Shown here piece by piece: positions 40,230 to 51,934 of a stretch of 64,000 nucleotides of DNA. The translations under genes were made by a program, and so were the position numbers. Below the pieces are notes generated by a model that was not told where the DNA came from, did not search any database, and saw only the letters and a program-made list of their open reading frames with translations. Origin of the DNA: Callorhinchus milii (taxonomy: Eukaryota); NCBI RefSeq assembly GCF_018977255.1, contig NW_024704743.1:8310001-8374000 (forward strand), in the 5' to 3' direction. Positions within the stretch are counted from its first letter, which is position 1, and each line of letters begins with the position of its first letter.

Positions 40230-43120
40230 ACCATGAATAAATACGAGGTTTATTCAATTGAGTTTATGCCTTAAAAACCACTCATTTTGACAATAAGTTC
40301 TGAGGAACAAACTTACAATAAGCACTTGAAGAATACACTGTAATGCAATCAGGACAGCAAGGCATTTAACTATTGAACAATTGAGAATTCATTTGCATTT
40401 AACACCCAGTGTATTGTCCTGTCCAGATATCTGCCATGGCAACTTTGATGCAGAAGATTTCATATTTGAAATTCCACAAAAAAAATCATACAAAGATCAT
40501 GAAACAGGTACTTGAAACAGCAATGTTAAAGTGTTTTACCATATAAAAATACATAATGTTCAGTAGAATTGAACTGCATCGCTTTTATAATGTACTGATG
40601 CTTCATTGCTGGTATTTGTAAAACTTCAGGAGTTGTAGGCACATGCAATACCTCTAGTTTATTCAGAGAGATTAGAGCAAGAGACAAATCAACCTTTCTA
40701 CTAAATACTCAGTAACCATTCTCTCTGAACACAAAATCTGACAAGTGAAAATGTAAAATTCAGTTAATTATATATTATTTTTAAGACAGTGTAGACATCT
40801 TGCAAATTAAAAAAAATTGTTTCACCTCAGGAAATGAACTAGCCATTTACAGTCAAAAACATTGGCTGACTTTTTTATGAAAAAAAAGTGCATTTTGAGC
40901 TGGCAGATTAGAAACCAAAGATCAAATTAATGCTGTTGATAGTGCATCTATGTTGCCTTTCATCAGGTGTCTTGATAAACTGACTGGTTGATCAGTAGCA
41001 AGAACATTAAATCCAAGTGGATCGATCATCCCTGACTGAAAAGGCTCCAGATACAACTGTTCCACAGTAATGTTGGGAGGACTTAGCCATTATACTTTAA
41101 GTCACAGTTGCTTTATTGGCTGATTTGTCAGTCAGCCTCCAGCATCTGAGAGAAGTGAAGATGGGACCCAGTAACCACACTGGGGACGTTACACTACATC
41201 AAATTATCTGCCTTTTTCATTGCCAAAATTTCACAAAATAAACAATTACCTATTTTTGTTTAAAGTATTCAGCACATATTGCTCATTTATCCTGTCTACA
41301 CAAAAAACACCTGAACTCCCTACAGTTTGGCTTCGCTTGTAAATAACTAATTTACTTTCATACATAAATTAACTCACTTATTCACACAAAAACATCCTAT
41401 GTCAGCCATGTACACTATCAGAAGGATTTACGCACTAAATGTAGAAAAACTAATTGGTGGAGTCTTCTGCAAACAGAATTACATGAATGACAGGGAGATA
41501 ATCCCAATTGAATTCACAATGGGATCTGGCTTTATAAAAACGATGTATCATTTTAAATTTCAGGCTGTACAACTTCCTGTAAATCTCAGCAAAATTTTGT
41601 TCAATTTTAGAGATTGAGATTTTTGCTTTCGTCCATGGGGATGCTTCTTTACCGGGGAGCATCCTATTGAATTTATTGCTTTCTCATTTCATCCACAAAT
41701 CATCTAATCCCATAACCTACTCTAGTCGAGAAACCAATTATTCCACCAGTTAGCATGCTTTAGTCTTTTCTGCCTACATTAAGCTAATAACCTCTTATTC
41801 TACACCCATCTTGGTCTCTAGGCAAACACTAGGGTTAAACCTGAATTCTCTTATGGATAAAATGTTTTTAAAGACACGGGAAGGTCTCGTCAACTCCTGT
41901 ATTTTCTGGTACTAGACATCTAGACTAATACTGAGTTTTTCCAAACTTATAAATGATCCAATAACAAACTGCATTCCGCAATCTTGCAACTATGTCGCAT
42001 TTGTAGCAAAGAACAGTGCATTTCGTCAACCACGCTGCATTGCACTGGCTATCAGCGAATGCGGTGAGCACTAGCATGCACCAAGCATTAGCCTCATGCT
42101 AGATGAGGAGTAACATGCATCTCTCAATCATTTACTTTGTGTCAGAAGCAGTCTACTATATTGTGAAAGGTTTCGCCTACAGTGCAAACAATTAACCTAT
42201 TAAAATTGCAGCCAGTGCATTGCTTGAACTCAAAATATTTTAAGGATGTCTACTTGTTGCAAGGGATCCCAGCATAATGCAGCACGGTTTGTGGTATACA
42301 ACCGAAAGTCATGGTAAGAATCTGGACAGGACAAACCAAGTAGTATTCTAGATTAGGCCAAATGCCTTCATCTCCTCTCCCCAAAATGTTATGGTCAACC
42401 AATGTGTTTTAGCATTGTTTTATTTGGAGAATTAAAAAAATATTCCATAACCAAAGTCAGGCAATGCAACATTCATATCAATTGGCCTCATCAAAATGCT
42501 GTATTTCATTCAACTTTAGCAGCTTTTTTTGTGCAACCCACCCTCACCAGCTCCGAAGCTCTAACCACCTACTGTCATGAATGCACTCAGTATTCAAGCT
42601 ATATTGACTAATCCTCTTCATCTCTCCAAAAAACAAAAATGTAGGAAAACAAGTTCAAGTACTATCTTAATTTACACAAGGGTGATAGTTGTGTTCCTCC
42701 AAATCATTTTCATTGTGAAACAAGCTTATCAAATCTACTTGGCGACATTGTTTCACAAATCCTAGAACAATGAAATGTACACAAATTAGGCTTCAATGCT
42801 TTTGCTAAGTTTTTTTTCCCTGCAACATACATTCAACTTGGCACAGTGCAGACTAAATTTAAGACATGAATGACAATTTACTGTGCAATGGAGCTACACA
42901 TTAAATCACATGTAGTTGTTTGCAAGCCTACATTGCAATCCTTTTTTTTTGCAGGGTGGGGGGATCAAGGAGGAGAATCTGCCAAGGGTAGAGTTGTACA
43001 GTTTTTTTTATTTTCAAAAAATAATCCTGTGAAAAATCTCAGTGGACGAGTTCACACTGCCTTGGAATGAAGGGTTGATTTGGATGCTGTCTGCTTCTCC
43101 TCTTTGATTATGTTGTTGCT
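40230..43120 (-). other. KIF5B: Probable KIF5B 3'UTR (~2.9 kb) with candidate AATAAA signals at 42419, 41672, 41112, 40638 and 40249
   Basis: Long AT-rich stretch with no recognisable SINE/LINE after the terminal acceptor; plus-strand TTTATT hexamers; true 3' end uncertain. Confidence 0.6.
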
Positions 43121-43127
43121 TTAGCAG
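43121..43127 (-). CDS. KIF5B: Coding part of the probable KIF5B terminal exon (C TGC TAA; default end ...SDKFC*)
   Basis: Strong acceptor ttgtttttcctccctttgcag starting at 43128; phase-2 junction gives one Cys and then a stop. Confidence 0.7.
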
Positions 43128-43549
43128 CTGCAAAGGGAGGAAAAACAATCAGTACATAGAGAATTCAAAAGGCATCACAGATCCAGTGTTGAGCTGTATG
43201 AACATGTACATCATCAAAATTCAAATACAGTATTTTCATTTATATAATCCTATTTACAACAGTTAAAAACTCAGAAAGCCATTTAAAATCTTACATTTGT
43301 TAATTAATAGACTAAGATGATGAAAGGTAAAGGATTATTTTAGTAAGTTACTCACATACAGTGAACATAAATCCACACCCCCCCATTATTAAGAAAAAGA
43401 ACGTGAGACACAGAAGGCTATTATTGGGGCTGCTTTATTGATTTTAAACAGAATGACGATTATTTAAAAATAGCCATATTGTCTGAAATCCCGCTAAAGT
43501 TAAAATACATCTGGTATAATCTGTCCTGCCTCCCCACATTTGGTCCCTA

Positions 43550-43830: not shown

Positions 43831-44800
43831 AAATATTACCACAAAATGGGTAATAAAAATTATAGTAAAATGACCAAAGGCCAAAGCTGAAGTTTGGACG
43901 TAGGAGAAAGTGGCAAATATTTTCAATTGATAATCCCTGAATAATTTCAGCAAAAAGATGTACAATTTTCTGTTTAACAATGTTATAATGAATATCTAAA
44001 CAGATTTGTTAATTTAGAATCTTTCTTATTATGTCATAGGTCAAGGTTTTATAATCAAAAGGCTTGTATGTTTTCCAGAAACATGTAAAAGGGTAGAAAC
44101 CTACAAAAGTCAACTATTTAAATCCTTAATTGCAGGTTAGTAAAACAGCAACTTGCATTTGTATAGAGCCTTCACGCAGGATAGCAACTCATAGAGCTGA
44201 AATTACAGTGGTAATTATTTTCTTTAATGCATAAAAAAATTACAAATATGCAAATGGTTCAAAGTGATATGTTATGGAAAGATTTGGAATGTTTAGTACA
44301 AATGTTTGTTAAGTGAGCACAAATATGACCTAAATAAGCAGCCTCAAATTAGTTGCTGTTTGATGTGTTCTTCAACAGAAAGTAAATGTTCGGTGAAAGA
44401 GACAAACAGTACATGAGAATAAACATTGTTTTTAATAGGAGCATTAAATAAGTTAAAACAAAACTAATGTAAGACCATTATACAGTATCTTGGAATTCAA
44501 ATTTGCGATTCAAATTCAAATTCAAATGTACCTAGGATGAGAGGAAAAAAAGTGTGGAGACCTGCATGGACAAATTCAATAAAGGATTACTGTGCTTTTG
44601 GTAAGAACAAAGGGTTAGCGTACAGCCACAGGATTACAAAATTAATTGATTGGCACTAAATTGAATGGTAATTATTTTGCTTTATGCATCAAATTATTGC
44701 AAATCTGGAAAATGGGTCAAAAGGAAATGTTATGAGGAAAGATTAGGGGAAGATTAGCTACCACTATTAGAGGGAGAATAGCGGAGAATATAGTATTCAC

Positions 44801-44828
44801 CTATTGTCATTTACATCTCTCACGTCAC
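44801..44828 (-). CDS. KIF5B: Candidate KIF5B 28-nt cassette microexon ((G)DVRDVNDN(R/S)), KIF5A exon-27-like
   Basis: ccttcag acceptor preceded by a tttcttttct tract; TAG|gtgaat donor; phase 1/2; resembles recalled KIF5A GNATDINDNR. Confidence 0.7.
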
Positions 44829-46909
44829 CTGAAGGTCCATGAATATTTAGAAAAGAAAGTGAAATATTATCATTAATGCAGAATAAGTTTTGTGAAGTAT
44901 TTTCAGTGAAAAAAAAGAGTCTAAAGATAGCCTTTTCCCAAAAGAAGATGTTTTATAGTTAAGTAGAAGTCAACAGTCCTCAATTTTAATGAAATAGTCC
45001 CACTAGTTTCACACAATATGTGAGTTCAAACAGATTTGCATTTAAAATACAGATAACCAAGTTATACCACAATTATGCTGAAGGTATTGGTGGAATGTAT
45101 CCACCAGACTGGTACTGTACAAGATAACATTACAGTTGGGAGTAATGCAGAACACATTAGTGAAGCAAAGGTCTAAACGCATAGAAAATAGAGCTCCATT
45201 AACTGACAAGATGGCCTGTTCTTCAGCACTGAAATGCAACAAGAGTCCAGTTGACTGCCTCTAAACATTTTTAAAAGTTCAAATTACTTCAGCTCTTAGA
45301 CATAAACCAAAAACAGTTACTCCTGCAGAACATTATCTGGAATACATTTATAATTTAGCCAGGTTTCATGAAATTATAGAAAGTCAGCACATCTATATAT
45401 ACAAAAAACTCTTGTAAAAACCTGCCATTTTTTGAAAAATAATGTATAATGGCGTATCAGTCTAAAATCAGAACTAAATAAACTGACTTAATACTATGAA
45501 TCTAAAAGGTTATCTACAATGTTAATCTTGTTGCAGGATTCAGCGGGTAGCTTGTTATAGGATTCCCCATGAGCAACAGGGAATGTTGCCAGTAACCAGC
45601 GGTACATCATGGCTGGTTTGAAGGAACTCTACCTCCGACACTTCCAAGTGAATGATCTGCAGTGACGTTCTGCCGATTACAAGCAGAATTCCCAGAGACT
45701 GACTCTGAGTTCCTATTACTTAATTCAGTTCTGAATCACTGCTTTTTACATAGAAAATTACAACATGGAAACAGGCCATTTCATCATTAGTCTGTGGCGT
45801 GTTTAGCTCCACGTAAGCCTCCACTCCTCTTAATCTCCTGTCCCTCACGTTTAACTGCTTGTTCTTGAGGTGGAGATCCATAGCATTGTGTTGAAGAGAA
45901 GCAGGGAATTCTAACCAATATTCATCTCACCCAAAGTCTCCAAAAAGTTATTTTTAATCAATCAAATTAAGTGTGGGATGCTGCTGCATTTCTCCACTTA
46001 ATACTCCTAACTTGTAGATTTATATGAAGCAAATTGCTGTTTTGTTGCAATAGGCACCAAATAAGAAAATCAGCAGAGCCTCATTACAACACAGTGGTTG
46101 GATCCTTAAAATCCTACAAGGTTGCAGTAGCTGGTTTCAACATGCGCACACAGCCAGCAAACCCTGCGTGGTGTGCTTTTATTAAATGTAGGTGGAGGAA
46201 AAAAAACAGGCACGATAAAGAAACCAGAGAAAATTACAGGAGCTATAGGATTTTGTGTACATCAATAACACAAATAGAGACAACGTGTAATTCAGGAATT
46301 AAATGAAACATTTGATTCATCATTCTGTACAACTACCATGCTACTGAACAAAACTTAACTTCTAAATTATGTACTGAAACCATACATCAGTAGAATGCCA
46401 ATTATCCACAAGTCTAACTGCATCCGGCTCCAGTGCAGAAGTGGATGCAGGGTTGCAAGTCACTGGCTAAAAAAAAATCCAGTTACTTGCATGTATGAAG
46501 TTGTATGAATGTGTGCAAGATTATTAAGGACACTATTCAGCCATGTATCACAAATAACTTGAAGGTATCTTAATCAAGCACTCAACTTCATACATGCTAG
46601 TAACAAAAAATTTTTTGGGATGCCAGTAACACAAAACGTCACTTATATTTTTGTCTTAAGTTTTAAGTCAGAGAAAAAATAGAGACTGAGACAGAAAGGG
46701 AGAGAAAGAAAAAGTTAAGAGTCAGAGAGGTTGACAGAGTGTGGTACTATGACACCTGATAGAAAAAAAGTTAGTATTTTAGCCAATTAATATTTAGTGA
46801 AATGATCAGTTATCCATAATGGTCCCTTATCCACAATGAGGCCAGTCCCAATTAGTGCTGATAATTGTCTCTCTACCAAAGTCACTACTATATCTGGACA
46901 ATAACCTAC

Positions 46910-46977
46910 CTTTAACAGATGAAGGCATGAAGCCAATGTCTCCAATTTCAGCATTATTAGTCATCCCTCCACTGACA
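46910..46977 (-). CDS. KIF5B: Candidate KIF5B cassette exon, 68 nt ((F)VSGGMTNNAEIGDIGFMPSSVK)
   Basis: ttttttatag acceptor and AAG|gtaggt donor; stop-free in the phase-2 frame from the tail exon; ends in phase 1. Confidence 0.65.
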
Positions 46978-49900: not shown

Positions 49901-50702
49901 ATCACATTTGTAGAATGGTGATAAGTAATGGAACCTTGGGTTTATCTATAGTAGGCATTTTCACTGAGACATCCAATTAAAATCACTGCAACAGAAATGC
50001 AGGCAGTCCAAAATGATCAGATGTCCCCTCAAAACTTTACAAGCTTTGAAGGAACTAATTTTTAAATGAGCCAGTGGCATAATCAGCTCTTTAAAAAGTT
50101 AAGAAAGTAAATAGTATTTGGCAGAGCCACCTTCATTTGGTTCACCTGGTAGCACTCTAACATCTGAGTCAGAGGATTGCGAAACACCTGAATGAAGATG
50201 CTGTAACCTTTCTTTGCAAGAACAATTGGAAGTGGAAAGAAATTCTCGCTTCTAGCAGAATAATAGGTACCAAGACAAATCCACTCCATTTATTTGACAA
50301 TCAAATTTGATGGGTTTACAAAAATGTACATTTTAGCAATGGTTCTCATCTGAGTCAGTCACTCAGTCCAGAAACTACATCTCAGTATAATTCATCTATT
50401 ATTGGTGACCAGTATTGAATTGCATATGTAAAACTGTCTTAAGATTTTCTCCAATGAAGACAGGATTAGCAAAATTTAGAAAGGGTGAGAATTAACATTT
50501 TGTAGATATTTGGAAAACTTGATGCAACAAATCCATGAAAGTAATAAAAGCAACATATACAGGTTCTTTGCTTGCAATGAGGCTCGCTCCATGAAAACAG
50601 AAAAAACAGATGAGGTGATTTTCAAACCTTAAATACACACAACATATCTTGATTTCGGCTGTTTTAGAAACACGTTTCTTTGAACTGTCCCATCATACTT
50701 AC

Positions 50703-50844
50703 AACTTATCCGATTTGGTGTTGCCACCACCACCTCCACGTACTGCAACAGCCTGGCTGTTCTGGAAAAATCCACCTCCCCCACGAATTGCACTTGGGTG
50801 AGTTGGGGAAGCCATCGGAGGCTGGCCAGGACGTACAGGCTTAG
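50703..50844 (-). CDS. KIF5B: KIF5B tail exon completing the autoinhibitory IAK motif ((A)[24 protein letters not shown]...NTKSDK), 142 nt
   Basis: Within ORF 50699..50884; [12 protein letters not shown] and VAVRGGGG are KIF5B-type rather than KIF5A/C; TAG acceptor, GTAAGT donor; phase 1/2. Confidence 0.92.

Positions 50845-51625: not shown

Positions 51626-51934
<309 letters not shown>

Follow-up and report, generated by a model that had tools for sequence, protein, structure and literature searches.

Does the short tail exon whose loss or skipping in KIF5A causes familial ALS (delta-exon-27) belong to KIF5A alone? The last 73 residues of KIF5A are described as unique and as the basis of neuronal cargo specificity in passages of PMC12172243 and PMC7028368, and the latter describes the carboxyl termini of KIF5A, KIF5B and KIF5C as sharing little similarity. 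The question is raised by a 28-nt segment in the last intron of KIF5B, a motor gene of general use, in Callorhinchus milii, within the 64,000-nt stretch of DNA analyzed here (the window).

Tail exons and paralog identity of the window gene

Exons of the window gene, which lie on the minus strand, are numbered 24–27 by analogy with KIF5A. Exon 24 (51643..51859, 217 nt) is the last coiled-coil exon and ends in phase 1, and exon 25 (50703..50844, 142 nt, phase 1/2) carries the IAK autoinhibitory motif end and two RGG motifs, IRGG and VRGG. The optional exon 26 (46910..46977, 68 nt, phase 2/1), present in RefSeq X1 and X2 (P0060, P0059), is the positional counterpart of KIF5A exon 26. Coding in the last exon begins at 43108..43127 and can follow two frames, Cys-stop in phase 2 and AAKATT-stop in phase 1; these ends match P0052 (SDKFC) and P0059/P0060 (AAKATT). 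The 28-nt segment at 44828-44801 (minus strand) sits between exon 26 (46977-46910, ending in phase 1) and the last exon (from 43127), with CAG at its 5' edge and GTGAAT at its 3' edge, just as the initial annotation had claimed. The phase 1/2 reading (G)DVRDVNDN given there, continuing with R or S, was reproduced by translation: splicing to 43127 adds Ser-Cys-stop, and reading through the donor adds Arg-stop. Its acceptor has 12 pyrimidines in 20 positions, against 15 for exon 24 and 16 for the last exon, and its donor lacks a G at +5. As an observation, the 28-nt exon of C. milii KIF5B (44801..44828) is confirmed.

Because exons 26 and 27 total 96 nt, using both or neither preserves the frame of the last exon, and the phase-2 frame ending in Cys-stop serves both the direct and the full-inclusion forms. 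Exon 26 without the 28-nt exon shifts that frame, giving six residues and a stop (AAKATT). The C. milii RefSeq models comprise this skip form (X1 and X2) and the direct form (X3, P0052); the 28-nt exon is in none of the 11 C. milii protein entries seen.

Other ends were also noted at this locus. Reading through the exon-25 donor GTAAGT (50695-50703, minus strand) meets an in-frame stop, and four C. milii entries (P0028, P0046, P0049, P0054) have the resulting end, SDKL. The KIF5C exon-25 junction likewise yields a stop, and the exon-27 donors of KIF5A and KIF5B both read Arg-stop. An acceptor at 44531 (18 pyrimidines in 20 positions), followed by a short TTTGAA repeat (44400-44531, minus strand), had been proposed as the partner of 44801 in an alternative junction; no stored protein uses it and its predicted ends match no protein tail compared, so that this junction is unsupported.

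The assignment to KIF5B was examined by phylogeny and synteny. Proteins identical over exon 24 carry the name Callorhinchus milii kinesin-1 heavy chain, and an exon 24 query has three matches in the genome, one in the window and two at loci on contigs C6 and C27. In a motor-plus-stalk tree of 18 sequences with tails removed, the window gene falls in the KIF5B clade (100/100), the C27 gene in KIF5A (100/99) and the C6 gene in KIF5C (100/100), with KIF5A and KIF5C as sisters (97/97); the rows of the C27 and C6 genes were pieced together from tblastn segments (813 and 815 columns). This second tree excluded a C554 gene, Diaphorina, Hypomesus, Melanerpes, Amblyraja and Protopterus and gained six rows relative to the first, which had placed the window gene with KIF5B at 98/97, and the two agree on its position. 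Constraining the window gene with KIF5A was rejected by the AU test (p-AU 0.0012), and the KIF5A slot among bird and mammal sequences is occupied by the C27 gene. Downstream of KIF5B and in the same direction lies an ARHGAP12-like gene, recognized from a large coding exon (17556-16846, minus strand) encoding an SH3 domain and linker. The fused model P0076 gives the same KIF5B-ARHGAP12 adjacency in turkey, and P0076 and P0360 together indicate that other vertebrates have the same neighbour pairings; ARHGAP12 is the downstream neighbour of KIF5B in human as well. A phylogeny placing the gene in KIF5A would have refuted the initial annotation; trees, AU test and synteny all give KIF5B. The two RGG motifs of exon 25 are a KIF5B feature according to passages of PMC7028368.

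The C27 gene has exons of 148, 83, 28 and 97 nt in the same phases as those of the window gene, ends in ETAAS and has a PIP4K2 gene downstream, while exon 25 of the C6 gene runs into a stop. Both KIF5A marks, the exon 28 ending in ETAAS and the downstream PIP4K2, are found at C27 and not at the window gene, and no likeness to KIF5A exon 28 was detected within the window (86/300 and 338/500 shuffles). Neither the KIF5A exon-28 peptide nor the first exon of PIP4K2 had a match in PDB.

A fourth, divergent KIF5 gene with introns is located at G000:C554:28500-40200 (plus strand, loci L015-L016). It shows 64% identity to P0060 over 547 columns, its exons are 75-85% alike at the nucleotide level to both the C27 and C6 genes, and it forms a long branch inside the KIF5B clade. 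The gene, possibly a fourth duplicate outside the three mammalian genes, can be followed as far as about residue 670, where it nears an assembly gap at 41381; the sequence past the gap (G000:C554:41400-55000, L016-L017) looks unrelated to kinesin.

Likeness to KIF5A exon 27

Passages of PMC5837483 and PMC12983328 place human KIF5A exon 27 at c.2993-c.3020 (28 nt, phase 1/2, residues 998-1007), limits that agree with the length and phase from which the initial annotation had argued. The peptide it had given for human, (G)NATDINDN(R), was seen as GNATDINDNR in KIF5A of Mus spicilegus (P0276). Mouse, bird and further KIF5A-type proteins have GNATDINDN or close variants, and the C. milii KIF5A exon on C27 encodes (G)NETDINDN(R).

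The window exon matches this KIF5A exon 27 of its own genome (L007:3762-3789, 28 nt, phase 1/2) at 20 of 28 nucleotides, and four of its eight mismatches fall at the third position of a codon. No other of the 459 AG-28-GT segments on the two strands of the window comes as close (runner-up, 16/28). When 5000 introns matched in length and composition were simulated with a Markov model, none contained an AG..GT-flanked match above 17/28, and 4 reached at least 20/28 anywhere when splice flanks were not required. A profile built only from the KIF5A exon-27 peptides of six other species ranks the window exon first of 287 open-frame AG-28-GT candidates, with a score of 27.2 against 11.7 for the second. 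By itself the peptide is a modest match to the mouse tail (64/10000 shuffles); the case for homology rests on position, length and phase. Taken with the nucleotide identity, the null distributions and the KIF5A-only profile, length and phases uphold the proposed relationship to KIF5A exon 27.

The introns flanking the KIF5A and KIF5B exons have nothing in common (282 and 874 of 1000 shuffles). The 68-nt exon agrees in its phases with KIF5A exon 26 of the same genome (83 nt) and is weakly like it in DNA (7/1000 shuffles) and in protein (278/5000 shuffles). A genome-wide pattern search hit two places, namely the window exon and exon 27 of KIF5A, and a reversed control hit one; the pattern was derived from these same two exons, and the result shows only the absence of a third exact copy.

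Occurrence, use and control of the exon in KIF5B

The initial annotation had pointed to other chondrichthyan KIF5B loci as the place to look for conservation, and the exon peptide was found there. RefSeq KIF5B inclusion isoforms are present in at least 5 of the 18 named chondrichthyans seen and in the sterlet. The X1 isoforms read GDLRDINDNSC in Rhincodon typus (XP_048469271.1) and Stegostoma tigrinum (XP_048412801.1), GDLRDVNDNSC in Scyliorhinus canicula (XP_038654189.1) and GGPRDVHDNS in the sterlet, Acipenser ruthenus (XP_058879242.1); a KIF5B isoform of Amblyraja radiata reads DDPRDINDNSC, and the only Leucoraja erinacea model seen (P0406) ends in DINDNR, with the donor read through. Altogether the homologous peptide occurs in nine RefSeq proteins (P0158, P0161, P0163, P0170, P0176, P0405, P0406, P0413, P0415). 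The window peptide equals that of S. canicula at 8 of 9 residues and that of Rhincodon at 7 of 9. These counts are lower bounds, given that 15 of 22 members of one cluster and 120 of 741 matches were listed.

Exon 26 is more widespread, being present in all 18 chondrichthyan species seen, the sterlet and the gar, whose X1 model combines it with the skip end. Inclusion and skip forms are both annotated in Rhincodon, Amblyraja, S. canicula and the sterlet, the last with all three tail forms. The P[IV]RPGQ motif occurs in 221 stored proteins, of which 9 contain exon 27, 24 contain exon 26 without it and 188 lack both. For 12 of the 17 chondrichthyans other than C. milii, exon 27 was in no entry seen. 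Full-length proteins derived from Logan in a skate-like cluster (n = 7) comprise five direct and two skip forms and no inclusion form, so inclusion looks like a minority form. Exons 26 and 27 are both missing from the teleost, lungfish, coelacanth and tetrapod KIF5B proteins among the cluster representatives and listed members, though representatives can mask isoforms (the gar X1 sat under X2). The direct splice with its Cys-stop end is found in KIF5B of birds, marsupials, lungfish and coelacanth. Several bird and mammal models are labelled X2 or X3 (P0226, P0241-P0245, P0251, P0265, P0266), which implies other, possibly longer X1 or X2 isoforms, and one woodpecker KIF5B model ends in DKVVS, resembling the start of exon 26.

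The RefSeq X-isoforms are automatic predictions that come without visible read support. As regards the proposed alternative KIF5B isoform, annotated inclusion forms in six other species speak for it, and the 11 C. milii entries do not contain it; conservation suggests that C. milii also splices the exon. The exon-27 skip, as widely annotated, is a normal KIF5B splice form in cartilaginous fishes.

We consider it probable that the 28-nt segment is a genuine and conserved KIF5B cassette exon, which descends, together with KIF5A exon 27, from a kinesin-1 gene that preceded the split between KIF5A/C and KIF5B, and that it forms a two-exon tail switch with the 68-nt exon. The switch would act on a presumably disordered and short tail behind the IAK motif. 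Joining exon 25 to the last exon would give a short form ending in FC; 25-26-last would shift the frame and end in AAKATT; and 25-26-27-last would stay in frame, add an acidic DxxDxNDN stretch and end in SC. These three tail forms exist as annotated proteins in other species. From the weak splice sites and the absence from most models, inclusion is probably minor and tissue-restricted.

The net charge behind the IAK motif of C. milii KIF5B is +5 in the direct and skip forms and +2 in the inclusion form. The C. milii KIF5A tail has a net charge of -5, and its skip frame reaches +9 by the end of exon 28, where it is Arg-rich and still open. Inclusion would tune the tail charge from +5 to +2 and, through it, autoinhibition or the choice of cargo, both of which the KIF5A tail influences; KIF5B with the exon would thereby come slightly closer to KIF5A in its autoinhibition or in the partners it selects. 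A point against a role for charge is that a conserved motif need not work in this way. The conserved D-[IV]-N-D-N motif may contact a partner. The KIF5B skip form would be harmless, since its stop comes after six residues.

The strongest competing explanation, to which we give a small share of the probability, is that the exon is homologous but silent in C. milii, a relic still used in some elasmobranchs and sturgeon. Its absence from all C. milii models seen and its weak acceptor and donor are as expected of a relic; however, its splice sites are intact, its frame is open, and it retains its close agreement with S. canicula and Rhincodon between flanking introns that are unrelated. Holocephalans and elasmobranchs split about 400 million years ago, and such retention since then would be unexpected without selection. 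Somewhat less plausible still is that the exon is retained because it affects the transcript or serves as an alternative terminal exon (DNR-stop), rather than for the SC end or a charge switch. The Leucoraja model ends in this way, the window donor also reads Arg-stop, and the following intron contains ATTAAA at 44436 and 44228 and AATAAA at 43439. Against this, 8 of the 9 inclusion proteins lack a DNR end, those of sharks and skates end in SC, and the exon encodes residues conserved with KIF5A, a sign that the peptide itself has been under selection.

For the cassette exon, the weak splice sites suggest regulated splicing. The intron directly 3' of it (44601..44800, minus strand) contains four CTAAY motifs in 200 nt where 0.44 are expected, three of them in the first 80 nt; three or more occur in 93 of 19593 80-nt windows of the gene. 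CTAAY-type motifs are bound by QKI, and the enrichment, which is post hoc and the only one among seven motif classes tried, suggests a candidate QKI-type splicing enhancer. A second QKI-like signal, two ACTAAY motifs where 0.15 are expected, lies 3' of the 68-nt exon (46710-46909, minus strand). Neural microexons of the SRRM3/4 type are 3–27 nt long, preserve the frame, have a TGC near the acceptor and are included specifically in neurons. The window exon is ruled out as one of these by its 28 nt, which is not a multiple of three, and by its nearest TGC about 52 nt upstream; any neural inclusion, which the initial annotation had raised as a possibility, may be under another regulator.

Origin of the tail and comparison with known systems

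In this genome exons 26 and 27 were not found in KIF5C, where the 4859-nt last intron and further downstream sequence were searched: the best spliceable segment matches at 10/28 nt, the best spliceable profile score among 52 candidates is 5.7, and tblastn gave only E>0.2. Lamprey kinesin (Petromyzon P0404, Lampetra P0268), which falls at an open fork in the second tree, joins a KIF5B-like exon-25 tail (scores of 108-110 against KIF5B and 60-66 against KIF5A and KIF5C) to an end like KIF5A exon 28 (0/10000 shuffles each for mouse and C. milii). The annotated lamprey protein lacks the exon 26/27 peptide, which may reflect in-frame skipping or absence.

Since KIF5A and KIF5B share exon 27 and KIF5A and KIF5C are sisters, the exon is placed at the root of jawed-vertebrate KIF5 and was lost in KIF5C; the KIF5A-type end of the lamprey protein makes the tail exons old, with exon 28 predating KIF5A and lost in KIF5B. 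Taken together, these point to a tail that predates the KIF5A/B/C duplications and was later partitioned. After duplication, the exon would have been fixed in KIF5A, lost in KIF5C and left optional in KIF5B of cartilaginous and early-branching ray-finned fishes. Hox linkage would tie the split between KIF5A/C and KIF5B to the first genome duplication. Homology of the exon and its origin before the duplications are thus supported. The wider claim that the whole tail predates them needs a qualification: of the KIF5A tail exons, KIF5B retains only exon 27 and, with weak likeness, exon 26, and no exon-28 end was found in the window.

Later transfer of the exon, by gene conversion or exon copying from KIF5A to KIF5B after duplication, or its independent origin, has little to recommend it. 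KIF5C, the sister of KIF5A, lacks the exon here and the annotated lamprey protein has no 26/27 counterpart, so that ancestry requires at least one loss. Yet KIF5B and KIF5A lie on different contigs (C2 and C27) with unrelated flanking introns, phases agree for two consecutive exons, the exon is in both shark and sturgeon KIF5B, and the lamprey KIF5A-type exon-28 end on a KIF5B-like exon 25 indicates that the tail exons are old. We dismiss chance resemblance in an intron, despite the short, D- and N-rich motif, on the simulated-intron and profile nulls and conservation in six species, and equally the gene being KIF5A, on the trees, AU test, synteny and separate KIF5A with its own exon in this genome.

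The ancestral cassette exon invites a broader scenario, which we offer tentatively and rate somewhat below even odds. A four-exon ancestral tail (25–28) with regulated short and long splicing may have become fixed as long in KIF5A and as short in KIF5C, with KIF5B losing exon 28 while, in its cartilaginous and early ray-finned fish forms, 26–27 stayed in use as a switch under tissue control; the skip seen in ALS would then be an ancestral, once-tolerated route. If so, the toxicity of exon-27 skipping in KIF5A would come solely from a shifted exon-28 frame that is open and Arg-rich, unlike the KIF5B skip frame, which closes after six residues.

A full-text literature search, with subscription journals, supplements and splicing databases outside its scope, found no description of a long KIF5B tail isoform or of the origin of the KIF5A tail. 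Automatic RefSeq models of six other species already contain the exon, unremarked, and the literature searched gave no link to KIF5A exon 27. An ancestral KIF5A tail, lost or made optional in the other paralogs, reverses the polarity given in reviews and is a candidate case of paralogs sharing out ancestral splice forms.

Among known systems, kinesin light chain also combines duplication with tail splicing in a kinesin-1 subunit, through alternative C-terminal exons (PMC8318374); the subunit is different and its sequence unrelated. Mammalian and avian KIF5B (kinesin-1 heavy chain, about 963 aa) is orthologous to the window gene and has an exon 25 with two RGG motifs, but cluster representatives and listed members lack the exon 26/27 peptide. 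The RefSeq X1 models of Rhincodon, Stegostoma, S. canicula and Acipenser KIF5B have the same exon in the same place; they are named just 'kinesin-1 heavy chain isoform X1', names that make no link to KIF5A exon 27.

The closest system is KIF5A exon 27 itself: it too has 28 nt in phase 1/2, stands second in a pair of short exons that follow the IAK exon, encodes a G-x-x-x-D-[IV]-N-D-N peptide and, when skipped, shifts the frame of the next exon. It is normally included, with low baseline skipping (passages of PMC12983328), whereas fish KIF5B uses the exon optionally and its long models are most often of the skip form. KIF5B also differs in having no exon-28 coding end after exon 27. The KIF5A tail sets cargo specificity and autoinhibition, and in mammals restrains some cargoes and binds GABARAP (passages of PMC7028368 and PMC12172243); according to a preprint (bioRxiv 10.1101/2022.03.05.483071), exon-27 skipping relieves KIF5A autoinhibition via the new 39-residue tail and not by truncation. 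Skipping has a different outcome in each gene. Human KIF5A gains 39 aberrant residues, C. milii KIF5A enters an open frame rich in Arg, and KIF5B adds six residues and stops. The fish KIF5B forms, one with exon 27 but without exon 28 and one a natural exon-27 skip with a six-residue end, could serve as comparison molecules for ALS in which losing the exon-27 peptide can be told apart from gaining an aberrant tail.
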